A stretch of 64,000 nucleotides of DNA from a virus (Duplodnaviria > Caudoviricetes), in IMG/VR virus record IMGVR_UViG_3300011717_000032, positions 14,336 through 78,335 of that record. One strand, written 5' to 3'. Every line of letters begins with the position of its first letter. Position 1 is the stretch's first letter. A program made the translations under genes and the position numbers. This document shows, in pieces, positions 80 to 61,896 of this stretch. The notes beneath the pieces are model-generated. The model ran no database searches, was not told the origin of the DNA, and saw only the letters and a list, made by a program, of their open reading frames with translations.

Positions 80-430
80 ATGCCAGCAGCTATCCCTCGC
101 GCCTGCCGTAAGCGTGGATGTTCCGGCACCACCACAGACCGTTCCGGCTACTGCGAGGCGCACCGTAATGAAGGATGGCAGCAGCATCAGCGCGGCCTGA
201 GCCGCCACCGGCGTGGCTACGGCAGTAAGTGGGACATCATCCGCGTACGCATCCTTAAGCGTGATCGACACATCTGCCAGCAGTGTCTGCGCAACGGCAG
301 GCCACGCCCTGCGGAAACGGTCGACCACATTATTCCGAAAGCTCACGGCGGCACCGATGAAGACAGCAATCTCGAATCGCTGTGCTGGCCATGCCATAAA
401 CGCAAGACCGCGACGGAGAGAACCCGATGA
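80..430 (+). CDS. HNH endonuclease (terminase-associated, HK97 gp74-like)
   Basis: CQQC...VDHIIPKAHGGTDEDSNLESLCWPCHKRKT; position just before cos/terS; paralog at 42175. Confidence 0.92.
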   Translation: MPAAIPRACRKRGCSGTTTDRSGYCEAHRNEGWQQHQRGLSRHRRGYGSKWDIIRVRILKRDRHICQQCLRNGRPRPAETVDHIIPKAHGGTDEDSNLESLCWPCHKRKTATERTR

Positions 431-5157: not shown

Positions 5158-6378
5158 ATGTCTGAAGTTAACGAATTACTGAAAAAAGTCTCCGCGAAGC
5201 TGGAAGAAGTTTCCGGCACTTTCAGCCAGAAGGCCGAGGACGCGCTGAAGGAGGCTAAAAGCTCAGGTCAGCTGTCTGCGCAGACCAAAGAGGCGGTGGA
5301 TAAAATTGCCACTGAACACAATGCGCTGAACGATGCGCTTAAGTCGCTAAAATCTTCAGTAGGTGAAATTGAGCAGCAGGTAGCTCAGATGCCGCTGGCC
5401 AGCGCTACAAAAATTATCGAGACCGTCGGCCAGACCGTTATCAGCAGCGAAGCGCTAAAAGCTTTCGCGGCAAGCGTTGAAGGCGGCAAGCGCGTCAGCG
5501 TTCCGGTTAATGCTGCGCTGATCTCCACTGACGTGGCAACCGGCGTGGTCGAGCCGCAGCGCCTGCCGGGTATTGATACCGCGCCGAAGCAGCGCCTCTT
5601 CATCCGGGATCTGATTGCTCCGGGTCGCACCTCGGCACCGGCCATCTTCTGGGTGCAGCAGACCGGATTCACCAATGCGGCGAAAGTCGTGCCGGAAGGC
5701 ACCGCCAAGCCGTACAGCGATATCCAGTTCGCCACGCAGATCACCCCGGTGACCACCATCGCGCACATGTTCAAGGCGTCCAAGCAGATCCTGGATGACT
5801 TCGCGCAACTGCAGTCCACTATCGACGCCGAGATGCGTTACGGCCTGAAATATGTCGAAGAGCAGGAAATTCTCTTCGGCGATGGTACCGGCGCGCACCT
5901 GAAAGGCATCGTCCCGCAGGCGTCTGCTTATGACGCTGCCTTTACTGTTGAGCAGCAGAACGGCATCGACGATCTGCGCCTCGCAATGCTGCAGGCGCAG
6001 CTGGCGCGCTTCCCGGCTTCCGGCCACGTCCTGCACTTCATCGACTGGGCGAAGATTGAACTCACCAAAGACACGCTGGGCCGCTATATCCTGGCGAACC
6101 CGGCGGCCCTGACCGGTCCGACCCTGTGGGGGCTGCCGGTGGTTGCGACCGAAGCTGCAGCCTTCCAGGGTAAATTCCTGACTGGTGCATTTAACGCCGC
6201 GGCGCAGCTGTTCGACCGTGAAGATGCCAACGTGGTGATCTCCACTGAGAACGCCGACGACTTCGAGAAAAACATGATCTCGATTCGCTGCGAAGAGCGC
6301 CTGGCGCTGGCGGTGAAACGCCCGGAAGCATTCATCTACGGAGCCTTCACTGCGCCTGCTGCAGGTGGCGGTGCGTAA
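5158..6378 (+). CDS. Major capsid protein (HK97 fold); C-terminus APAAGGGA
   Basis: Coiled-coil delta-like N-terminus; LFIRDLI, ILFGDG, LWGLPV, EERLALAVKRPEAF motifs. Confidence 0.95.
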   Translation: MSEVNELLKKVSAKLEEVSGTFSQKAEDALKEAKSSGQLSAQTKEAVDKIATEHNALNDALKSLKSSVGEIEQQVAQMPLASATKIIETVGQTVISSEALKAFAASVEGGKRVSVPVNAALISTDVATGVVEPQRLPGIDTAPKQRLFIRDLIAPGRTSAPAIFWVQQTGFTNAAKVVPEGTAKPYSDIQFATQITPVTTIAHMFKASKQILDDFAQLQSTIDAEMRYGLKYVEEQEILFGDGTGAHLKGIVPQASAYDAAFTVEQQNGIDDLRLAMLQAQLARFPASGHVLHFIDWAKIELTKDTLGRYILANPAALTGPTLWGLPVVATEAAAFQGKFLTGAFNAAAQLFDREDANVVISTENADDFEKNMISIRCEERLALAVKRPEAFIYGAFTAPAAGGGA

Positions 6379-8123: not shown

Positions 8124-8828
8124 ATGTCCTCGAATTATGAAAAATCGCAGCTGACGAAAATCCTTATTTCGTCACTGCCAACGACCAGAGACGCAATGGA
8201 AACTGCCGTCTATCTCGATCTGAGCTGCACTCTCAAAGAGGCGCAGTTCACAGGCGGGCAAAAACAGGATATTGACGTCACCACGCTATGCTCCACTGAG
8301 CAGGAGAACGTCAATGGCCTCCCGGCCCCTTCGGAGATATCACTGTCAGGTAACTTTTACCGTAATGCTGCGCAGGATGCGTTGCGTGATGCGTATGACA
8401 ACGACACGGTTTATGGCTTCCAGATCATCTTCCCGTCTGGCAATGGCTTTAAGTTCCTTGCCGAAGTCCGTCAGCACACCTGGTCTTCCGGTACTAACGG
8501 CGTAGTGGCGGCAACGTTCTCCCTGCGTCTGAAAGGGAAGCCGGTACCGATTGACCCGGCACTTAAACTGACCACTGATTTGCCCGCCGCACAATCTGTA
8601 GCGGTTGGGGCGGCGATCAGTATGGCGGTCGCCGCCGCTGGCGGTAAACTTCCCTACAGCTTTGCCTGGAAGAAAGGTGGTGTCACCATCAGTGGGCAAA
8701 CATCTGATACATTCAATAAATCCAGCGCTGTTTCGGGTGATGCGGGAGATTACACCTGCGTGGTCACTGATTCTTCTGCCCCGATTAAGACAATTACATC
8801 ATCAACTTGTACCCTTACCGTCAATTAA
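8124..8828 (+). CDS. Major tail tube protein with C-terminal Ig-like domain
   Basis: First ~140 aa match the 147-aa P2 tube; extension YSFAWKKGG...DAGDYTCVVTD is I-set Ig-like. Confidence 0.9.
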   Translation: MSSNYEKSQLTKILISSLPTTRDAMETAVYLDLSCTLKEAQFTGGQKQDIDVTTLCSTEQENVNGLPAPSEISLSGNFYRNAAQDALRDAYDNDTVYGFQIIFPSGNGFKFLAEVRQHTWSSGTNGVVAATFSLRLKGKPVPIDPALKLTTDLPAAQSVAVGAAISMAVAAAGGKLPYSFAWKKGGVTISGQTSDTFNKSSAVSGDAGDYTCVVTDSSAPIKTITSSTCTLTVN

Positions 8829-12900: not shown

Positions 12901-13429
12901 GGAGGGGAGCCTTGCCTATAAGACCCTTTTTATTGCCAGCAAGGCGGCGGCAATGGCGCAGGCCGTGATCAACACCGAACTGGCAGCGACCAAGGCTATG
13001 GCGGAAGGCGGCCTGATTATGGGGATCCCGGCGGCCACAGCAATCCGCGCCGTTGGTTACGCGTCAGTGGCTTTGATAGCCGGACAGTCGCTTGCCGGTA
13101 TGGCTCATGATGGCATTGACCGGGTACCGGAAACAGGGACCTGGTTGTTGCAGAAAGGAGAGCGTGTGGTAACAGCCAGCACCTCTGCCAAGCTCGATGC
13201 GACCCTGGAGAGGGTGCAGCAGGCCAGGCAGGCCTCGGCTGGTGGAACCGTTCATATCCAAAATTCATTCACCGGAAAACCCGATGACGCAACGCTGATG
13301 GCTATCGACCAGCGAAACCGCCAACTGGTGATATCGATCCGTAAGGAAATGGCGGCTCAGGTGGTAAAGCCAACTAATGAGTTTGGCAGGGCCTTAAATG
13401 GATTCTATGGCCGGACCAGGAAGGAGTGA
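9974..13429 (+). CDS. Tape measure protein
   Basis: 1151 aa, Ala-rich helical; QFSQALAQGVLRGEEFNAV; C-terminal GMAHDGI. Confidence 0.95.
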   Translation: MATLRELIIKISANSQSFQTEISRASRMGQDYYRTMQNGGRQAAAASRESERALSDLTDGFASAGRAAAAATAAFATGKLVQIADEWNSVNSRLKQASSSADDFAVSQRQLMEISQRTGTAFSDNANLFSRAAASMREYGYSSDEVLKITEAVSTGLKLSGANTQEASSVITQFSQALAQGVLRGEEFNAVNEAGDRVIRALAAGMGVARKDLKSMADQGQLTIDKVVPALMSQLGSLQGEFASMPQTVSGSLQKVTNSFMAWVGGVNQATGATDALSGGLDGVARTLDSFTSSAVSGALSDVADNMSTITTVAGALVGVGLARYLSGVATSATSATGALISAAKSEVALAVAQDKAAQSAVAASRAEVYRAQQAVQRSRGADVQAAQQEKIAAAEAKVTAAQARLTTALTSGSATEKVRARTALERAQAGLVAAKNADAQAIAEMRLAAAEAARDRNLANRVSTQSNLNSVTSVGTRLMSGALGIIGGVPGLVMLGAGAWYAMYQNQEQARRSAQEYASQIDEIREKTSRMSLSETDDNRGRTVSALVEQNRLVDEQAKKVGELKYQIDDLNASRGKPGITSENDANILRAIAIVTDQLAVEEGKLNDMREKSRNIQQTLEGIERQRNDLIKEHAWRQNALYQSQLMMNGQHEKFNNLLGLGNKLLMARQGLANVPLRLPQADLDKKQTDALEKSRRDLELSRLKGEAKERLRLSYAADDLGLTSDPQFQTGRQELINNGLAEWRNNEANKPKAKGGKTEGEKTEDVYKRLITQQQEQIALSGQNTELAKTKYQVTQGELGILSEAQKTELLRNSAALDHLNAVERLKSLNKELLEPEEALLNTTRERIKLLREAAPATEEYRKTMERISKASVQEAPKFGGIDSSVGGASGELIRVADAQKELEKWHETQLEMQKELLDQKEINEQTYADRVAEINKTNASQLQDIQAGYTSASLSMFSDLAGQSAQLLQGIGQEGSLAYKTLFIASKAAAMAQAVINTELAATKAMAEGGLIMGIPAATAIRAVGYASVALIAGQSLAGMAHDGIDRVPETGTWLLQKGERVVTASTSAKLDATLERVQQARQASAGGTVHIQNSFTGKPDDATLMAIDQRNRQLVISIRKEMAAQVVKPTNEFGRALNGFYGRTRKE

Positions 13430-20470: not shown

Positions 20471-21649
20471 CTAGAAGTAGGATTCAGTTTTCTTCCTATT
20501 GAGTTTTGACCCTGTTCCTTTATGCCCAGCCGTAACATGAAATTCCCATTCGTTACGCTGCAATGCACCAGTAGTTAAACCGTAAAATCGCACTGTAAAT
20601 CCACACTCAAGATTGTAATCCGGGAATTTCGCTACAACATCTGAACGCTGAATCTTTCCCTCAAGAAAGCCAGGGAGGATTTCCTGGCCAATTCTAAGGT
20701 TAAAGAACTCCTGTCCCATGCTCTCACTTGGAACGCACCATCCTGTGAAAACACAAGATCCATCATCTTCCCTTATCTTGTCGACATAGCCATGCCATGT
20801 TATTTTGCTTTCATCATGATCGACGGTTAAATCCTGTTCCAGATTCAGTCCCATTCCTTTCAGATATTCATAAACACCTTCCATGACAAAGAATTTGAAC
20901 GGACTTGAAGCTTTCGACGCGGCGTGCATATCGTAATATTCAGTTTGAGTCATTAAAAGCTTTTTGACCAGGTGATGACCTGCGCCCTTGAATGCTTTCA
21001 ATGCCTCAATATCATTAACGTCAACAAGGCCCTCTAACTTATTGCGTGCACTTGCGATATAGTCATCATAGTTCTTATGATGGAAATGAAGATAAATAAT
21101 ATCTGTGTCAGTCTGCAATCCTGATTCCACCTCTCCACGATGGAACCCATTTCCCAGGGCAGTTATTCTTGATTTAGGGAAAAAAACCTTTTCAGGTTTA
21201 TGGCTCAATGCGAATTCTTTAGCATTGAGTGGATGGTTGCCATATGTATATTTGATTTTAAGAGTTGAGTCTATTTCTTTGTATTTTAATAACTCATTTT
21301 TTACATCATCACTTGATAGAGAAACCTTACCCTTTGAAAACTCAACCCCAACAAATTCATCACAATCCAATGGCATCATGAAATCATAATCATGAGCACA
21401 CTTTAATTCTTCGTATTTATCTACAAAATATATATGTCTGGTATTGAAATCCTCAAAGGTGTTCCTGTCATAAACTACATTCATCCCTTTTTGCGAATAT
21501 TCCTTCAGGACGTCAAGGCATCGCTCATCGACTGACCCATTATCGTAGACGTATAAATTGCCCAGTCCAAAAAGCTCAGCATGATGCAGTATCCATGGTT
21601 CAAGAAGCCGGTACTCATCCTTCTGCATCATCAAAACAGCAACTTTCAT
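20471..21649 (-). CDS. GT-A (family 2-like) glycosyltransferase moron with C-terminal beta domain
   Basis: MMQKDE..LEPWILHH, YVYDNGS, PLDCDEF (DxD), YLHFHHK; AT-rich; opposite strand to late operon. Confidence 0.8.
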   Translation of the reverse strand: MKVAVLMMQKDEYRLLEPWILHHAELFGLGNLYVYDNGSVDERCLDVLKEYSQKGMNVVYDRNTFEDFNTRHIYFVDKYEELKCAHDYDFMMPLDCDEFVGVEFSKGKVSLSSDDVKNELLKYKEIDSTLKIKYTYGNHPLNAKEFALSHKPEKVFFPKSRITALGNGFHRGEVESGLQTDTDIIYLHFHHKNYDDYIASARNKLEGLVDVNDIEALKAFKGAGHHLVKKLLMTQTEYYDMHAASKASSPFKFFVMEGVYEYLKGMGLNLEQDLTVDHDESKITWHGYVDKIREDDGSCVFTGWCVPSESMGQEFFNLRIGQEILPGFLEGKIQRSDVVAKFPDYNLECGFTVRFYGLTTGALQRNEWEFHVTAGHKGTGSKLNRKKTESYF

Positions 21650-23246: not shown

Positions 23247-24389
23247 TCACCCAGTTTTTGAATCGATAACTACCCAATCTTTACCTCTGTCATCATTATA
23301 TTGATCAGTTTGTTTACGAGATTTATGACCCAATAATTTCTGCGTGTCTATGCCCTGATCCCTGTATAAACGCTCAGACAGAGAACGTTGTTCATGGAAG
23401 GTTGGGGCGGTTCCTTTTTCCCATTCAATTCCGCAGTTGTTTCTGGCCTTTTTAAAGGTTGTGGTCAAGCTGCTCGATGAGACGCAATCACCTCTTGTGG
23501 ACTGCGAGGTAGAGTGCCGGAAATGAACAAGATATTTGCTCACTACAGCATCACGACATTTAGAAACAACATCTCTTAAGGATATCCCCAATACATCACA
23601 TCTCAGAGTCAAAGGGATGGCTAAGCGAGATCCTGTTTTTTCTTGTTCTACATGAAGCATGTCGTCCCAAATATCGGAGAATTTCATTTTACAGATATCC
23701 CCCAACCGTTGACCCGTAACTAAAGCCAACAGCATGCCAGTTTGTAAATACGGTTGCTGATGCTCCGCAGCCTCATAAATTTTCATCCATTCATCAAATG
23801 ATAATCGATGTCGGGTAACTTTATGTCTTGGTTGCCTGGTCGCCATCGCCGGGTTGTAGCCTGGCGGAACGTGCCCGGAATGTTGAGCCTCTTTGAAAAC
23901 GTCAATTAATACCATGCGAACAACTTGAGCCATTCTGTTGTGACCTTCGCTCTTTATTGCATCAGTAATTTCAGAAATATCAAGAGTTGAAATATCTTTA
24001 AGGTGCTGCATTCCGCAATGCTCTCTAAACAAGCGCAATGGCTTATTTTTTTGCAGAAAAGAGTTTGGCCTTAATTCATTATTCTTTACTCTTTCCTCCT
24101 GAATTACAGTGTATTTATCAATCCATTCAGTAACGGTGATGTCTGTTCTTTTCCCCTTCATTCTAGCCAGTCGGTCATTAACACTGAGTATTTGCCGGGT
24201 ACGCTGTTCGGCAATGATTGTGTTTGCCTCAGTTGCAACTTGTTTAGCTTCGGCCTCATCAGTACCCAGGCTATGGAATCGACCAGATACAGGATGTTTA
24301 TACTGCCAGTAAACCTTTCCTGTCCGCTTATCAAGCTTGCAGTAAAGATTTGGTATTGAGATTTTATGAGTCCGCGGTCTAGCAGCCAT
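23247..24389 (-). CDS. int: Tyrosine integrase (lambda family)
   Basis: N-terminal arm-binding domain; TGQRLGD, QEKTG, FHEQRSL, LLGH, DQY catalytic motifs. Confidence 0.96.
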   Translation of the reverse strand: MAARPRTHKISIPNLYCKLDKRTGKVYWQYKHPVSGRFHSLGTDEAEAKQVATEANTIIAEQRTRQILSVNDRLARMKGKRTDITVTEWIDKYTVIQEERVKNNELRPNSFLQKNKPLRLFREHCGMQHLKDISTLDISEITDAIKSEGHNRMAQVVRMVLIDVFKEAQHSGHVPPGYNPAMATRQPRHKVTRHRLSFDEWMKIYEAAEHQQPYLQTGMLLALVTGQRLGDICKMKFSDIWDDMLHVEQEKTGSRLAIPLTLRCDVLGISLRDVVSKCRDAVVSKYLVHFRHSTSQSTRGDCVSSSSLTTTFKKARNNCGIEWEKGTAPTFHEQRSLSERLYRDQGIDTQKLLGHKSRKQTDQYNDDRGKDWVVIDSKTG

Positions 24390-39258: not shown

Positions 39259-39324
39259 CGCATGCTTCTGAGTTCACATTCCATAGCGGGTCTTTTCCCG
39301 TATCCGAAAAAGCGAGAGCAACTG

Positions 39325-39609
39325 ATGAGTGAAGCAAAACCGCAGGATGGCAGCACAGTAAAGGGTTATCGAACCCTTACCGACGACGACATCGCACAAA
39401 TGAATGAGCTGAAAGATATTAGCCGTGACTTTTGCGAAAAGCTCGATATCGAGCGCCATCACATTCACCTTGAGATTGAGGAAGGTGACGCACCGGATAA
39501 AGACCAGTGCAATGACGCTCTGCGCTGCCTGTCCATTGCCCGTACCAAAATGCAGGAAGCCTGTATGTGGGCCTGTCGTGCTGTAGCGCGTCCTGCCTCT
39601 GATTGTTAA
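39325..39609 (+). CDS. Acb2-like cyclic-oligonucleotide sponge
   Basis: KGYRTL..I..MNELK and R.L.IARTKMQ...M...RAVARP match the Acb2 family pattern as recalled. Confidence 0.75.
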   Translation: MSEAKPQDGSTVKGYRTLTDDDIAQMNELKDISRDFCEKLDIERHHIHLEIEEGDAPDKDQCNDALRCLSIARTKMQEACMWACRAVARPASDC

Positions 39610-39724
39610 GCCATTACAAAGCTCATCTGCTGGTGGGCTTGATAATGGTATCCCCCAGAGAGGATAAATTAAAAATATCCTCTGTAGCGGCTAAAGAAGT
39701 CAATCATTTATAAGAGGATAATCA

Positions 39725-39970
39725 ATGTCCGAAGTTACCGTCACACCTGCACAACAGATACGTTTGAATTTATTGGCATCTCTTGGTTATGACACTGCGG
39801 CAGCCGCAGAGGCCATTAAGTTCGTTGGTGATGATCCGCTGAAGTATCAGATTTTCGTAAACCAGTTAAGCCGGGTTACAACTGAAAATGGGTTGGTGGC
39901 CAGAACGACCAAAGCCATTAAAGAGTCGGAAGAAGCGCTCCTGCTTTTTGACACTGAATCTGGCAGTTGA
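39725..39970 (+). CDS. DUF2560-like small protein ending in ESGS
   Basis: AGAGGA RBS; AAAEAIKFVG..RTTKAIKESEEALLLF; terminator GCCTCGC-TTAT-GCGGGGCTTTTTT at 39991. Confidence 0.65.
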   Translation: MSEVTVTPAQQIRLNLLASLGYDTAAAAEAIKFVGDDPLKYQIFVNQLSRVTTENGLVARTTKAIKESEEALLLFDTESGS

Positions 39971-40020
39971 GCATTACCGTTATCTGGCTGGCCTCGCTTA
40001 TGCGGGGCTTTTTTATGCGC

Positions 40021-40121
40021 TTCGCACGCGCACCATGAAGAGAGTCTTTCAGTAGTGAGCCTGGGTGATGCCGTTAGGTTGCGTTTACCTCTCGGGCGGT
40101 ATTGCCGTGTGGCAGGCTCAC
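40021..40121 (+). ncRNA. Conserved non-coding motif plus long hairpin ahead of the glycosyltransferase cassette
   Basis: CGCACGCGCACCA..AAGAGAGTC.TTCAGT.GTGAG also at 3-37 in P1; GTGAGCCTG (40055) / CAGGCTCAC (40113) inverted repeat. Confidence 0.45.
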
Positions 40122-40139
40122 GCCTAAAAGGAAACGCAC

Positions 40140-41597
40140 ATGCAGGTCACAATAGACGGTGTCCCGTATGCACCTGTCAATAATTCACGCGCTGTAATTG
40201 GAATCGCCATAACCACCCATAACAGAGCTGAAGTTCTTAAACGTGCTATTGAGCAGCACATGAAGCATCTGCCTACTGGAACATTGCTGGTGGTGATCGA
40301 TGATGGCTCCAAACCTGCTGCAGTAGCGCCTGACGGTGTGCAACTGCTTCGTCATGAATCATCGCTCGGCATTGTCGCCTCGAAGAACGCCAGCCTGACC
40401 GCGCTGATTGATGCCGGATGTGAACACCTTTTTCTGTGGGATGATGACGCCTGGCCTATCTCCGATAACTGGCATCTGCCTTACATAGAATCACCAGAAC
40501 CGCACCTGGCTTACCAGTTCCTCGATTTGGCTGGCCGCAATAAGCTGAACGATATTGCTGTGCTGTACCGGGATGATAAGCACATCGCTTACACCGGTCA
40601 GCGCGGTGTGATGCTCTACTTCCACCGTAGCGCCATTGATAAGGTTGGCGGATTCGATCCGATATATTGCCGCGGTATGTATGAGCATCCAGATCTGGCC
40701 CTTCGCATTCACAACGCCGGGTTATCGACCTGGGCGTTCGCTGATGTGGCTGGCTCTGAAAAACTGATTCATTCGATGGATGAGCATGAAGAGGGCTCTC
40801 GCTCAATACCCCGGCCAGAACGCGAGAGTCTCGCAAAGGCAAATGCAATAATCTACAGCGCCCGTCGGGATAGTGGCTATACAGCATATGTACCTTACCG
40901 ACAGCAGCATGATGTTGTTATCACGTCTCTCCTGACAAACCAGCCCGATCCGCAACGCAAGGTTAAGATGCCAGCCGATGCAGCCTTATTGCAGGCGTGG
41001 GCCCGTTCCATTCGTGGTGCTAAGGCTGTGGTGCTGGCAGACGAACTTGCTACTGCGCCGGAAGGTGTAACCCTGCAGTCTGTTCCTACATTGAACATGA
41101 GCCCGTACTTTGCGCGCTGGCTGCATATCTATCAACACCTGAGAGAGCATCCAGAATATCGCTTCGTGTGGTGTACCGACGGTACAGACGTTGAGATGCT
41201 TCGGGAACCTTGGGCAGCAATGCAACCCGGTAAAATTTACGTCGGCTCTGAGCATAAGACGTATGCAGAAGAGTGGATGAAGGCTAATCACCACGGCAAA
41301 GCCTATAGCGAGTTCCTCGAAAGATATCGTGACGATCAGCTGCTGAATGCTGGCCTGATTGGTGGCAGCCGTGAAGATGTAATTGAGTTTGCCCACCGGA
41401 TCATCCGTCAGCACTACCTGATTGAAAGCCATCGCTTCTGGAAGATGGAGTCAGCACCCGCAACGCAGGTGGACATGGGCGCTTTCGGGATGGCTGCAAA
41501 GTCATTCGGTGATCGAATCGTTACCGGTCCTCTGGTTCACACCATCTTTAAAACTGAGGGTTTCGGTAAGGAGGCTGCCTGGTGGAAGCACAAATAA
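40140..41597 (+). CDS. Two-domain glycosyltransferase (GT2 + second GT-A domain)
   Basis: IAITTHNR, VVIDDGS, FLWDDD; second domain WCTDGTD..YVGSE..LLNAGLIGG. Confidence 0.88.
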   Translation: MQVTIDGVPYAPVNNSRAVIGIAITTHNRAEVLKRAIEQHMKHLPTGTLLVVIDDGSKPAAVAPDGVQLLRHESSLGIVASKNASLTALIDAGCEHLFLWDDDAWPISDNWHLPYIESPEPHLAYQFLDLAGRNKLNDIAVLYRDDKHIAYTGQRGVMLYFHRSAIDKVGGFDPIYCRGMYEHPDLALRIHNAGLSTWAFADVAGSEKLIHSMDEHEEGSRSIPRPERESLAKANAIIYSARRDSGYTAYVPYRQQHDVVITSLLTNQPDPQRKVKMPADAALLQAWARSIRGAKAVVLADELATAPEGVTLQSVPTLNMSPYFARWLHIYQHLREHPEYRFVWCTDGTDVEMLREPWAAMQPGKIYVGSEHKTYAEEWMKANHHGKAYSEFLERYRDDQLLNAGLIGGSREDVIEFAHRIIRQHYLIESHRFWKMESAPATQVDMGAFGMAAKSFGDRIVTGPLVHTIFKTEGFGKEAAWWKHK

Positions 41598-42175
41598 AGT
41601 TTATTGTGGTCGGTCATCATAAGCGCTTTGAGCAGGCAAGCTCACTGGCTGCAGCTATAGGGCCAGCTTGTACGATGCTGATTGATGAGCAATACAGCGG
41701 AGCAAATGCCGGACATCGCCGCGCGCTTGAGTGGGCATTATGGCAGGATTGCCGTGTAGTAATTCTGGAAGATGATGCGCTGCCCGTCGCTGGCTTTACT
41801 GAGCTGGTGGGTGAATGGCTGAACCGCTTCCCTGATTCGCTTGTGAGCTTTTACCTGGGCACTGGCCGCCCACCTCAGTATCAGATGCAGGTAGCCGAAC
41901 GGCTGATTGTTGCTGATAAGACTCGGGCTGACTTCATCACGCTATCCCGCCTGATTCATGGTGTCTGTTACAGCGTACCTCCTCAGAAGATTCACAGCGT
42001 GCTCTCCCGATGGGATAGCAGTAAGCCTGCTGATTATGCAGTAGGTGACGCATATGGTGGTGCGGTGGTCTACCCATGCTGGTCTCTGGTGGACCATGCC
42101 GACGGCGAACCGGTTGAGCGACACCCTGACGCAGCCCCACGAACAGAGCGCCGTCGTGCGTGGAGGTTAGCCTGA
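41582..42175 (+). CDS. Second glycosyltransferase-like protein (GT25-like EDD motif)
   Basis: GHRRALEW, VVILEDDALP, SFYLGTGRP, SLVDHAD; GGAGG RBS; TGATG-coupled to HNH. Confidence 0.75.
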   Translation: MEAQIKFIVVGHHKRFEQASSLAAAIGPACTMLIDEQYSGANAGHRRALEWALWQDCRVVILEDDALPVAGFTELVGEWLNRFPDSLVSFYLGTGRPPQYQMQVAERLIVADKTRADFITLSRLIHGVCYSVPPQKIHSVLSRWDSSKPADYAVGDAYGGAVVYPCWSLVDHADGEPVERHPDAAPRTERRRAWRLA

Positions 42176-47067: not shown

Positions 47068-48279
47068 ATGTCTGAAGTAAACGATATTCTGAAAAAAGTT
47101 ACTGCCAGCATTGAAGAGGCAACCGGCAAGTTCAACGCCAAAGCAGAAGACGCACTTAAAGAGGCGAAGAAATCCGGCAAGCTGTCAGAAGAAACAAAGG
47201 CAGCCGTTGATAAAATGGCTTCTGAGTTCAACGCCCTGCGCGAAGCAGAAAAAACGCTGAAGGCGGCGATGGGCGAGCTTGAGCAGCACGTTGCACAGAT
47301 GCCGCTGGCAAATGCAAAACAGGTTGTCGAATCAATCGGTCATCAACTGATCTCTGCTGAAGCGCTGAAAAACTTTGCCGCAAGCGTGGATGGTGGTAAG
47401 CGCATCAGTATCCCTGTTAAAGCAGCACTGACCTCAGCGGATGTACCTGATGGTGTCGTCGAACCTCAGCGCATTCCAGGTATCGATACGGCACCAAAAC
47501 AGCGCCTGTTCATCCGTGATCTGATTGCGCCAGGCCGCACTTCCTCTCCGGCAATTTTTTGGGTGCAGCAGACAGGCTTCACCAATAACGCGAAAGTGGT
47601 TCCTGAGAATACCCAGAAACCATATAGCGAGATTGAGTTCACACCAAAAATCACGGGCGTCAGCACCATTGCTCACCTGTTTAAAGCTTCCAAACAGATC
47701 CTTGATGATTTCGCACAACTGCAGTCAACCGTTGATGCCGAAATGCGCTACGGTCTGAAATATGCAGAAGAGCAGGAAATCCTCTTCGGTGACGGCACTG
47801 GTGTTCACCTACACGGCATCGTTCCTCAGGCTTCAGCGTTCGACCCGGCGTTTACCGTTGAACAGCAGAGCGGTATTGACGATCTGCGCCTGGCAATGTT
47901 GCAGGCGCAGCTGGCGCGCTTCCCGGCTTCCGGCCACGTGCTTCACTTCATCGACTGGGCGCGGATCGAACTGACCAAAGACAGCCTGGGTCGTTATATC
48001 CTGGCTAACCCGGCTGCGCTGACTGGACCGACTCTTTGGGGCCTGCCAGTTGTTGCTACGGAAGCGGCAGCCTTCCAGGGTAAATTCCTGACCGGTGCAT
48101 TCAACGCAGGCGCACAAATCTTCGACCGCGAAGATGCCAACGTTGTGATCTCTACTGAGAACGCCGATGACTTCGAGAAAAACATGATCACCATCCGTTG
48201 CGAAGAACGCCTGGCGCTGGCCGTCAAACGTCCAGAAGCATTCGTGTATGGTGCATTCCGTACCGGTTCCGGCAGCTAA
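47068..48279 (+). CDS. Major capsid protein; C-terminus RTGSGS
   Basis: Paralog of 5158-6378. Confidence 0.95.
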   Translation: MSEVNDILKKVTASIEEATGKFNAKAEDALKEAKKSGKLSEETKAAVDKMASEFNALREAEKTLKAAMGELEQHVAQMPLANAKQVVESIGHQLISAEALKNFAASVDGGKRISIPVKAALTSADVPDGVVEPQRIPGIDTAPKQRLFIRDLIAPGRTSSPAIFWVQQTGFTNNAKVVPENTQKPYSEIEFTPKITGVSTIAHLFKASKQILDDFAQLQSTVDAEMRYGLKYAEEQEILFGDGTGVHLHGIVPQASAFDPAFTVEQQSGIDDLRLAMLQAQLARFPASGHVLHFIDWARIELTKDSLGRYILANPAALTGPTLWGLPVVATEAAAFQGKFLTGAFNAGAQIFDREDANVVISTENADDFEKNMITIRCEERLALAVKRPEAFVYGAFRTGSGS

Positions 48280-50013: not shown

Positions 50014-50457
50014 ATGTCTGCACTTTATGAAAAATCGCAGCTGACGAAGATCCTTATTTCCTCTGCGCCAGCCACCAAAGAAACGATGGACTCCGCAACC
50101 TTCCTCGATTTGAGTTGCACCATCAAAGAGATTCAGTTCACCGGCGGTCAGAAGCAGGATATCGACGTTACAACGCTTTGCTCAACCGAGCAGGAGAACA
50201 TTAACGGACTCCCTTCTCCGTCAGAAATTTCTCTTTCCGGTAATTTCTACAAAAATCCGGCGCAGGACGCATTGCGCGATGCGTATGACAACGATACGAC
50301 CTACGCTTTCCAGGTCATTTTCCCATCCGGCAAAGGATTTAATTTCCTGGCTGAAATCCGCCAGCACACCTGGTCTTCCGGTACCAACGGTGTAGTGGCG
50401 GCAACGTTCTCCCTGCGCCTGAAGGGTAAGCCTGAAAACATCGAATCTGGTTCCTGA
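50014..50457 (+). CDS. Major tail tube protein without Ig domain; C-terminus NIESGS
   Basis: Paralog of the N-terminal part of 8124-8828. Confidence 0.9.
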   Translation: MSALYEKSQLTKILISSAPATKETMDSATFLDLSCTIKEIQFTGGQKQDIDVTTLCSTEQENINGLPSPSEISLSGNFYKNPAQDALRDAYDNDTTYAFQVIFPSGKGFNFLAEIRQHTWSSGTNGVVAATFSLRLKGKPENIESGS

Positions 50458-59496: not shown

Positions 59497-59550
59497 CAGC
59501 GATTCAAAATTATCTGACCCGTTTCGGCGGGCTTTATGCGCGGAGCAAGC

Positions 59551-61896
59551 ATGAATATATATGGAACAAATAATCAGTTGGGCTCTACTGACCCCAGGGA
59601 CCTTTACGATAACTCCCAGAATTTTGATACAGCCATCAACAGCATTACTGAGGCTATCTGGCACGATCGCTTTGGTCGAGCCCGGCGTACCTGGTACGGT
59701 CTTGAGGGGATAGCATCGGCGGCAATTAAAAAATTTATTGAAGATGGGAAGAAAGCCATTGCCGGTGTGGGTTACATCACCATGGACTCCTTCCAGGATG
59801 GTAAAACGCTGACCCTAACTAATCAGGCACTGCGCTGGAAGTTGCCAGACGGCGATGGTGATTATTACCGCTGGGATGGTGCATTCCCTAAAGTGGTCCC
59901 TCCTGGTTCTACGCCGATTACTTCTGGCGGAGTAGATAAAGGGAAATGGGTCAATGTGAGTGACGGGACTGCACGCAGCGATCTGGCAAAGCCAACCGGT
60001 GCCACTATGGTCGGTACGCCATTTGACATGACTTTGGGTGAGATTCTGGCATCAGATCCTGCTCCAATGTCATTTGGGTATGCTACTGAGGCAGCCAAAA
60101 GCAGGATCTGCCGTCATGGCGCAAAAGTGGTTCTGGTCGGAGATAGCCTCAGCAGCTTCTATAATATCGACACGGCTAATATCACATCGCTGTTTGAGTC
60201 ATATCTTCGCCGTAAGGTGCAGGAGATTAACCCAACTGCGGAATTCATTAACCATGCTATCGGTGGGCGACGATATTACGATCTTGGAAGGGATGAGCCA
60301 GCAATTGATTCTAATGATGGCTATCCTTGGTATACAGATATATCAAAACGCTGGATGTATTATATTGACGCGATTAAGCCTGACGTGGTGATTCTGGCTT
60401 TTGGGATGAATGATGGTGAAGGTTGGCTCGCAGGTAATTTCCAACAGTCAAACTTTTATAAAATGATGGATGAGCTGAGGACAATAGGCAGCGAGCCTGA
60501 AATTATTTTCTGTACCAATATTCTTCCGTCAAAAGAGAACCCAGCGACTTCAGACTTTGATCAGCAATCCGGCCGTGACGCGATGGCCGGCTGGACTAGG
60601 TCCTATGCGAAATTTATCGGCGCTAGCTTTATCGATTTGCACCGTCGATTTAAATCTATGCGGGACGGCGTCGATCCATGCGCTTTCAGTTATGCGAGAA
60701 AAACGATATCAACGTTGGTAAACCTGCCATATTCCTACACTGATATGGTGCCATGTTATTCGGCGCGACTGGTGCTGATGGATCCGGCAGTGATGTCTTC
60801 TGGTATCCAATTTTCTTTATCGCAGTTGGTGAATAATTTTGTAACGCTTTCATACGATGCGGCGGTATCTAAATGGCACGTCCAGATATACACCGGAACA
60901 TCAGTCGGGATTACGATTAATCAGCTTGCTGATGGAACCGCGCCATCCGTGGGTATGGAAATATTATTCTCGTTGAACGGTGATTCTCTGACGATTTTCA
61001 TTGGAGATAATACCACCCCGGTGTTCTCCGGTAACATCATACGCTTCGGTGGCCTTTTCACGCCTAAAATAAGTGGGACTGGGCAGATTAGGGTTGATTT
61101 GATTGCAGGAACTGAAATTCCTATGGCTCCTGTATTAACCGACCATGACGTCTATAACACTGAGGGCGATGGCGGTAATGGGCTTAACCACCCAACAGCG
61201 AAAGCCAGCTCCCGGATTTATGCAGCTCCGGTTGATTACTGGTTCGGCAGTGCTGGCGGGAAAGAAAAAAGCTATGACATTGTGGCTGACTTTGTCAGTG
61301 GAAAATTAAACGTCTCCAACCACCTGAGCCCAAAATCAGCAGCAGTTTCAAACTTGTTTGGAAAGCTGACGTTTATCAATGGTGCGATCGAGTACGTTCG
61401 TGATGCTAAGAACAATGTCATTGGGGCAAAGTTTGGGGCAACCAACCGGGCCTATATCGACACGGCTGATTTCATGGAGTCTGGGCTCTCATTCGAAAGG
61501 ATCTCCGTAGAAATTGATTTCATCGGCCCGTCAGGGCAGTGCTATGTCGTAACGCTCGGTGAAGCAACAACCGGGGACAGGGCTTTGTATCAGGTGACCG
61601 CCAGCCTGCAGACCAGGGGAACTGTTTCAAGCGGGGGCGTGGCGTCAGACCTTACATCTAGCGCCACATACCCGCTCGTCGCCGGTAATGTCTGTAAGTT
61701 CAGGCACTCCCTCGATATTCCAAGTAAGGTCGCGAGACTGCGGACGGAGGACGGCTATAAGGTCGGGAATATTAATACCCACACGATCACCGGCATGTCC
61801 TCTTCGATGATCACCAAGATTAAGTTCGGCTACGCATCACCAAACACGTTCGGTGTAGATGTAATCATCAAACGCGTACGTATCTCGTTCAGGTAA
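59551..61896 (+). CDS. Tail spike with SGNH/GDSL hydrolase domain
   Basis: Shared N-terminal anchor; VLVGDSLS, HAIGGR, AFGMND, GLNHPT blocks. Confidence 0.85.
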   Translation: MNIYGTNNQLGSTDPRDLYDNSQNFDTAINSITEAIWHDRFGRARRTWYGLEGIASAAIKKFIEDGKKAIAGVGYITMDSFQDGKTLTLTNQALRWKLPDGDGDYYRWDGAFPKVVPPGSTPITSGGVDKGKWVNVSDGTARSDLAKPTGATMVGTPFDMTLGEILASDPAPMSFGYATEAAKSRICRHGAKVVLVGDSLSSFYNIDTANITSLFESYLRRKVQEINPTAEFINHAIGGRRYYDLGRDEPAIDSNDGYPWYTDISKRWMYYIDAIKPDVVILAFGMNDGEGWLAGNFQQSNFYKMMDELRTIGSEPEIIFCTNILPSKENPATSDFDQQSGRDAMAGWTRSYAKFIGASFIDLHRRFKSMRDGVDPCAFSYARKTISTLVNLPYSYTDMVPCYSARLVLMDPAVMSSGIQFSLSQLVNNFVTLSYDAAVSKWHVQIYTGTSVGITINQLADGTAPSVGMEILFSLNGDSLTIFIGDNTTPVFSGNIIRFGGLFTPKISGTGQIRVDLIAGTEIPMAPVLTDHDVYNTEGDGGNGLNHPTAKASSRIYAAPVDYWFGSAGGKEKSYDIVADFVSGKLNVSNHLSPKSAAVSNLFGKLTFINGAIEYVRDAKNNVIGAKFGATNRAYIDTADFMESGLSFERISVEIDFIGPSGQCYVVTLGEATTGDRALYQVTASLQTRGTVSSGGVASDLTSSATYPLVAGNVCKFRHSLDIPSKVARLRTEDGYKVGNINTHTITGMSSSMITKIKFGYASPNTFGVDVIIKRVRISFR

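Follow-up and report, generated by a model that had tools for sequence, protein, structure and literature searches.

Predicted virion O-glycosylation genes, homologous to those of mycobacteriophages, in the late operon of an HK97-like enterobacterial prophage

Virion glycosylation has reportedly been demonstrated in mycobacteriophages only and was considered rare elsewhere, with little evidence outside actinophages; the sugars are said to be O-linked glycans on the C-terminal ends of the capsid and tube proteins (Freeman et al. 2023, Cell Host Microbe 31:1216). The mycobacteriophage virion glycosylation system (cited through PMC12363180 and PMC11256854) comprises gp108-110 of phage Che8, with cluster F relatives such as Pacc40 gp98 and gp100. 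In PMC12363180, gp110 is named among the glycosyltransferases (GTs) essential for capsid glycosylation. Ten unrelated phages tested in one study gave no glycostain signal (PMC12894461). Here we analysed a window of 64 kb, which is part of the 78,335-base IMG/VR provirus record IMGVR_UViG_3300011717_000032 and contains two related HK97-like prophages, P1 and P2, arranged in tandem. P2 harbours a cassette of two GT genes, GT1 and GT2, directly in front of the gene for its packaging-associated HNH endonuclease. This pair is best explained, with a probability of roughly 0.7, as a module for O-glycosylation of the phage virion that shares its ancestry with the one in mycobacteriophages. P2 virions are probably sugar-coated, because the predicted GTs are related to mycobacteriophage virion GTs and the capsid and tube proteins share a C-terminal Gly-Ser tail. 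The first-pass annotation of this DNA had already proposed that the phage glycosylates its own virion, a proposal for which the gp110 homology, the gene order, the late operon, the soluble nature of the predicted proteins and the Ser tails all argue.

When GT1 and GT2 were searched against 50,697 phage records, the majority of the matches came from mycobacteriophages. For GT1, the identity to cluster F GTs (Kimberlium, Pacc40 gp98 and others) is 43-44% along the entire protein. For GT2, it is 32-36% to proteins of cluster F and Gordonia phages, with 35% to Che8 gp110 (BLASTP, E 3e-28). A likeness of both proteins to cluster F GTs had been noted in the first-pass annotation and was borne out by these identities. 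The choice of Che8 as the reference held for GT2, which is homologous to gp110, but not for GT1. No significant similarity was found between GT1 and Che8 gp108 or gp109, with a weak profile hint to gp109 only, and the actinophage relatives of GT1 are an alternative cluster F GT, for instance Pacc40 gp98. Cluster F GTs had also been said to lie just before a terminal HNH gene. Indeed, the order in Pacc40 is the GT1 homologue, a small open reading frame (ORF), the GT2 homologue, HNH and the genome end, and the HNH protein of P2 is 35% identical to Che8 gp112. The E63-D64-D65 motif of GT2 is among several alignment columns that do not vary between the enterobacterial and the actinophage members. 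The AlphaFold2 (AF2) model of GT2 was poor (predicted local distance difference test score, pLDDT, of 56; shallow alignment). A family assignment from this model was rejected, as Foldseek gave weak generic GT-A matches only (mimivirus R655/R699, LH3 and PBCV-1 A64R, all with E > 1e-3). Sequence searches of the PDB with GT2 yielded nothing useful.

Among the 361 ORFs of at least 50 amino acids (aa) in all six frames of the window, three end in Gly-Ser, and all three are found in P2: the major capsid protein, the tail tube protein and a DUF2560 protein (Table 1). The codons used for these three tails differ. The short tail of the P2 tube occupies the site of the long C-terminal extension of the P1 tube. 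The DUF2560 protein may be a third acceptor. Its homologues in GT-positive IMG/VR loci end in Ser in 11 of 12 cases (AS, SS or GS), and the P1 homologue ends in PSEEA. In both Che8 and Pacc40, the capsid protein ends in TGS and the tube protein in DGS. Furthermore, Gordonia phage GodonK harbours a homologous GT pair among its head-tail genes, where, by their annotated names, the adjoining major tail protein ends in TGS and the head-to-tail adaptor in AGS.

A survey of 320 IMG/VR loci, of the kind that the first-pass annotation had suggested, revealed a strong co-occurrence of the cassette with Ser-terminal (mostly Gly-Ser) capsid and tube proteins across unrelated families, with few mosaic exceptions. 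Where the GT slot was covered, the phrog_10 capsids included 77 GT-positive ones with a Gly-Ser (GS) end and two without (one of which ends in ATS), as well as two GT-negative ones with a GS end and nine without. Counts within one capsid family are not independent, and Fisher tests on the phrog_10 counts ignore relatedness and were not taken as probabilities. In phrog_247, all nine GT-positive capsids end in GS, compared to none of the 44 GT-negative ones, which end in TP or GG; the tubes of these loci end in GS or SS when GTs are present and in GA, AA or NA when they are not. All 50 phrog_617 loci are GT-positive, and every capsid ends in GS or TS. Full flanks were available for 56 GT2-anchored loci. 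In 54 of them, an ORF of at least 300 aa on the plus strand ends in GS or TS, a class that corresponds to capsid proteins according to PHROG scans of representatives, and in 48 a downstream tube-sized ORF (130-260 aa) ends in GS or SS. In PHROG scans, the clusters of GS-ended ORFs proved to be major head and major tail proteins from several families. In some contigs, GT1 and GT2 are separated by an inserted homing-endonuclease-like ORF (PADLOC HEase, E 3e-7; L104, 9484-10017; L095, 4951-5304).

The cassette is also carried by isolated phages, namely HK542, mEp390, ECP1, Fraca, Cronobacter phages ENT39118 and ENT47670, Salmonella phage FSL SP-016 and Aeromonas phage AsXd-1. At the protein level, identity is 73% for GT1 of HK542, 67% and 60% for GT1 and GT2 of ENT47670 and 78% for GT2 of FSL SP-016; the remaining cassette-bearing isolated phages show 68-75% DNA identity. 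In these phages the genes are annotated as hypothetical or glycosyltransferase and nothing more. HK542 (L328) carries the cassette in the same slot, from the lysis genes to HNH, and its capsid, tube and adaptor proteins end in SSGS, ASGS and EEGS, respectively. Its capsid and adaptor are 100% identical to those of HK97, in which the GT slot holds a KilA-N gene and the tube protein has 234 aa. HK97 and HK542 are a natural control pair. In mEp235, which has no cassette, the capsid ends in GGGA and the tube in VVTP. Genomes of Enterobacter, Citrobacter, Salmonella, Klebsiella, Serratia and E. coli yield homologues in abundance, yet among complete E. coli genomes they are rare (6 of 5,426 by megablast).

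Within P2, the two GT genes are co-oriented and overlap by 16 nucleotides (nt). GT2 starts with a GTG codon at 41582, which lies 7 nt downstream of an AAGGAGG Shine-Dalgarno sequence, and GT1 stops with TAA at 41595-41597. The cassette is joined to HNH by a TGATG, in which the A of the GT2 stop codon TGA (42173-42175) is the first base of the HNH ATG at 42175, and a GGAGG is located 8 nt upstream of this ATG. The arrangement that the first-pass annotation had described, an overlapping late-operon pair coupled to HNH, is therefore present as stated. The same applies to the terminator ahead of the cassette, a terminator-like hairpin with a T-run at 39990-40009, and to the absence of an AT skew: the GC content of the cassette is 0.52-0.57 compared to 0.47-0.57 in the flanks, a composition like that of the surroundings. 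No match to a sigma-70 consensus was found on the plus strand between the hairpin and GT1. P1 harbours a near-identical terminator and motif without GT genes, and its HNH start codon follows about 40 nt on, so that the slot in P1 is empty, as had been noted before. The junction is the same but HNH follows the motif directly, and therefore the cassette of P2 represents an insertion of about 2 kb at a junction that is otherwise conserved. As P1 has the same hairpin directly upstream of HNH, this element is not peculiar to the GT genes. As to its wider position, the P2 cassette lies downstream of the Q gene and before HNH, terS and TerL. In other phage types (L149, L094 and L114), the GT pair belongs to the structural block, where it comes immediately after the capsid gene.

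Table 1. Coordinates of the cassette, the candidate acceptors and the P1 control features (positions in the 64 kb window)
Feature	Position	Strand	Match or remark
GT1, 485 aa	40140..41597	+	phrog_1579, E 7e-226, end-to-end match
GT2, 197 aa, Che8 gp110 family	41582..42175	+	phrog_854, E 7e-68
Packaging-associated HNH endonuclease, P2	42175..42525	+	PF01844, E 7e-15; translationally coupled to GT2
Terminator-like hairpin with T-run, then conserved motif (about 45-60 nt) common to P1	39990..40058	+	
P2 major capsid protein, predicted acceptor	47068..48279	+	phrog_10, E 5e-88; C-terminus ...RTGSGS
P2 tail tube protein, 147 aa, predicted acceptor	50014..50457	+	phrog_158, E 1e-59; C-terminus ...NIESGS
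P2 DUF2560 protein, 81 aa, possible third acceptor	39725..39970	+	PF10834, E 3e-17; C-terminus ...TESGS
Q-type late antiterminator, P2, start of late operon	36867..37445	+	PF06576, E 3e-91; PF06530, E 1e-11
P1 HNH endonuclease, empty-slot control	80..430	+	common motif directly 5′ of gene
P1 major capsid protein, control without GT cassette	5158..6378	+	C-terminus ...APAAGGGA
P1 tail tube protein, 234 aa, control	8124..8828	+	long C-terminal extension where P2 has Ser tail

GT1 could be modelled with high confidence from an alignment of 84 diverse relatives (AF2, pLDDT 95.7, predicted template modelling score 0.87). The model consists of two GT-A domains, residues ~14-250 and ~250-485. For the N-terminal domain (14-250), the best superposition was obtained with polypeptide GalNAc-transferases (ppGalNAc-Ts; ppGalNAc-T2, Z 18.2, root-mean-square deviation (rmsd) 3.5 Å, 222 residues aligned). 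PF00535 remained below threshold in GT1 itself (18.6 bits compared to the cut-off of 23.3 bits), yet it is matched by 64 of the 84 relatives, and PF02709 is matched by 57. The C-terminal domain (250-485) superposes on enzymes of family GT6, with bovine alpha3GalT at Z 16.9 and the ABO transferases within Z 16.5-16.9. It gave no Pfam match, the GT6 family PF03414 and PF25342 included, and PDB sequence searches with it returned nothing useful. Its look-alikes in the Atlas fall into clusters with GT6, GT8, Nucleotid_trans and GT_PLOD, and PF25342 is present in 58% of the members of one cluster. With the whole GT1 as query, Foldseek placed tandem GT-A enzymes at the top, with heparosan synthase 2 and K4 chondroitin polymerase ahead of LH3 and COLGALT1 (E 2e-11 to 7e-8); for LH3, the E value is about 1e-8 and the global superposition is poor. 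The first-pass annotation had read GT1 as a domain of GT2 enzyme type plus a second GT-A domain resembling the lysyl-hydroxylase/collagen GT fold. The two GT-A domains were recovered in the model, but the nearest fold of the second one is GT6, with LH3, another of the related retaining GT-A enzymes, matching more weakly. The lysyl-hydroxylase analogy is therefore reasonable yet not the closest, because GT6 superposes better on this domain. The acidic metal-binding motifs of GT1 are conserved in both domains (D101-D103 and D347/D350), so that, together with GT2, all three GT domains harbour such a motif. No segment resembling a transmembrane (TM) helix was found in GT1 or GT2 (Kyte-Doolittle 19-residue maximum 1.1-1.2).

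From these data we propose the following course of events. Judging from its position, the cassette would be transcribed late, along with the genes for lysis, packaging and the head. Q-antiterminated RNA polymerase would start at the late promoter and pass through the hairpin at 39990. According to sequence and model, both products are soluble enzymes of the cytoplasm, and together they have three catalytic domains of GT-A type. Using host nucleotide-sugars, these enzymes would link a short glycan to the C-terminal Ser of the capsid and tube proteins, mostly within -Gly-Ser-COOH, and elongate it, and the DUF2560 protein may be modified likewise. Polypeptide GalNAc-transferases start protein O-glycosylation. 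There are two candidates for the enzyme that would start the chain here: GT2, the sole component shared by sequence with Che8, and the N-terminal domain of GT1, which is structurally nearest to the ppGalNAc-Ts. The glycans would coat the head and tail surfaces, on the tube at the site of the long C-terminal extension of related phages (the 234-aa tubes of P1 and HK97). In enteric hosts, they might shield the virion from antibodies or proteases, or alter its adhesion.

Several observations speak against a virion O-glycosylation module. GS tails occur without GTs in L005, L016 and HK97; in HK97 (L330, 4028-5545), gp5 ends in FSSGS and gp6 in EEGS despite the missing cassette. In L069 the tube ends in GS but the capsid does not end in Ser, and L151 carries the GTs although neither its capsid nor its tube has a Ser tail. 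A paired phylogenetic test on the phrog_10 tree was powerless (five contrasts: two concordant, none discordant and three unchanged; p 0.5). The case rests on the recurrence across unrelated capsid and tube families and two bacterial phyla. The match of the N-terminal domain of GT1 to the ppGalNAc-Ts exceeds that to other enzymes of GT2 type by only about one Z unit, the glycans of Che8 are only reportedly placed at the C-termini, and for all enterobacterial phages the glycan on virion proteins is a prediction only. The exceptions in the survey are compatible with lambdoid mosaicism. They indicate that tails and enzymes are separable, and therefore glycosylation would be dispensable for assembly. 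Finally, the PHROGs category of phrog_1579 and phrog_854 is 'moron, auxiliary metabolic gene and host takeover', and this filing of both families favours a different role for the pair, lysogenic conversion. In that case the GTs would alter the lipopolysaccharide, the capsule or another host glycan and bring about a serotype change or a superinfection block, as many prophage-borne GTs do. The hairpin upstream of the cassette would fit as well, and P1 does have a GT on the minus strand that follows the tailspike, a classic site for a moron. However, GT1 and GT2 have neither TM segments nor GtrA/B/C-like partners, the stretch from the hairpin to GT1 contains no promoter consensus, and in P1 this hairpin is found ahead of HNH. 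Moreover, GT2 and HNH are coupled in translation, other phages have the pair within the structural gene block, and the association with Ser-terminal capsid and tube proteins would be left without an explanation. We consider lysogenic conversion unlikely.

Modification of phage DNA is more improbable still, and we regard it as a slim chance. Here the GTs would modify bases just before or during packaging in order to evade restriction, which would suit a cassette that adjoins HNH and terminase. Weak matches to PF20691 (TET-associated glycosyltransferase) were found in 16 of the 84 GT1 relatives (best E 2.5e-5), but not in GT1 of P2 itself. Among the P2 early-region ORFs scanned, TET/JBP and hydroxymethylase families were unmatched and an MT-A70 methyltransferase was the only match; the Ser-tail association is not accounted for by this explanation either. 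The GTs might also glycosylate another protein or a small molecule during lytic growth, such as a host defence factor or other phage proteins, with the Ser tails being an unrelated trait of the lineage. The exceptions to the tail association and a nearby Acb2/Tad1-like counter-defence gene are in line with such a target. On the other hand, the tails recur in unrelated capsid families (phrog_10, phrog_247, phrog_617 and cluster F), mostly where GTs are present, and likewise across tube families (phrog_158 variants, phrog_584, cluster F and GodonK), and PADLOC gave no match. Another target seems to us about as doubtful as lysogenic conversion, and a virion O-glycosylation module remains the explanation that we favour.

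The surroundings of the cassette were annotated as well. P1 runs from HNH via terS, TerL, portal, protease, capsid and tube to the tailspike. In P2, the integrase gene (23250-24389) is followed by Q, the lysis genes, an Acb2/Tad1-like gene, the DUF2560 gene and the GT cassette, and past the cassette by HNH, terS, TerL, portal, protease, capsid, tube and tailspike. Terminator-like hairpins lie at 37495-37550, downstream of the P2 Q gene. The Acb2/Tad1-like gene (39262-39609) is flanked by the lysis genes and the DUF2560 gene. Its product has an Acb2/Tad1 hairpin domain (PF24729, E 5e-19), and P1 has a similar ORF at the equivalent relative position (G000, 13000-13356). The GT of P1 (392 aa, PF13704) is encoded at 20474-21649 on the minus strand, directly after the tailspike, in the classic position of morons and lysogenic-conversion genes, which contrasts with the late-operon pair of P2. 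The P2 tailspike (59536-61896) has a TSP1/Gp66 N-terminal domain followed by a GDSL esterase domain (PF13472), and this predicted architecture suggests a deacetylating, receptor-destroying spike. The MT-A70 family adenine methyltransferase of the P2 early region is encoded at 33146-33934. Among the RNA runs, only two (X18 and X19) had contigs of a relative, which is less than 90% identical and belongs to another organism. These RNA-seq contigs span the end of the Acb2/Tad1-like gene and the first part of GT1 (39523-40681). Their mean word depth there is far above that of the packaging and head-gene contigs, but contig depth cannot rank genes. One of the contigs has 554 unrelated letters in place of the intervening sequence.

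According to the first-pass annotation, glycosylation of the own virion was not known to be described in this host group. In the papers that could be searched, we found no published report or proposal of virion glycosylation in enterobacterial phages, no report of it outside actinophages in general and no discussion of GT function in HK542, mEp390 or the ENT phages. The genes as such were already present in isolated coliphages, annotated only as glycosyltransferases. If the prediction is true, glycan-coated virions would be common in temperate phages of Enterobacter, Citrobacter, Salmonella, Klebsiella, Cronobacter and E. coli, which would matter for the encounters of gut phages with antibodies, with mucus and with the surfaces of bacteria. 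The acceptor tag defined in this way would be very short, and HK542 and HK97, with identical capsid proteins and GTs in one of them only, would be a tractable pair for enzymology. A wider proposal, which we put forward tentatively and at odds a little short of even, is that a short C-terminal -Gly-Ser tag and a gp110-family GT form a portable module. Phages of Actinobacteria and Proteobacteria would have passed it on to each other, in part together with the HNH/terminase block, so that many enteric temperate phages would be glycan-coated on heads and tails, and the HK97 capsid (SSGS) would be a latent acceptor that is glycosylated in its sibling HK542.

Compared to described enzymes, the domains of GT1 resemble the eukaryotic ppGalNAc-Ts (GT27) and the GT6 alpha-1,3-Gal/GalNAc transferases at the level of the fold. 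The identity to these enzymes is only 9-16%, GT1 has no lectin domain, and sugar and acceptor specificity are not readable from the fold. Pasteurella heparosan synthase 2, E. coli K4 chondroitin polymerase, human LH3 and COLGALT1 likewise have two GT-A domains per chain; however, the whole-chain rmsd of GT1 to these enzymes is large (14-24 Å), GT1 has no hydroxylase domain, and the LH3 match of its C-terminal domain is weaker than the GT6 match. Gtr-type seroconversion cassettes consist of membrane GtrA/GtrB/GtrC beside the attachment site, and the P2 pair differs from them in having no TM-like segment and in lying in the late operon, far from int. The P2 phage differs from the Che8/cluster F system in that its host is a Gram-negative enterobacterium, in being an HK97-like, lambdoid phage with Q-dependent late transcription and in having no homologues of Che8 gp108 or gp109, and the P2 system is known from its genes alone. 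With the Che8/cluster F system it shares a gp110-family GT (35%) and a two-domain GT of the Pacc40 gp98 type (43%), GT genes that come last before HNH, cos and terminase, and a capsid and a tail tube ending in -Gly-Ser. This strong comparative evidence suggests that the P2 system is a homologous and previously unremarked case of phage virion glycosylation, in a host group that is new for it.

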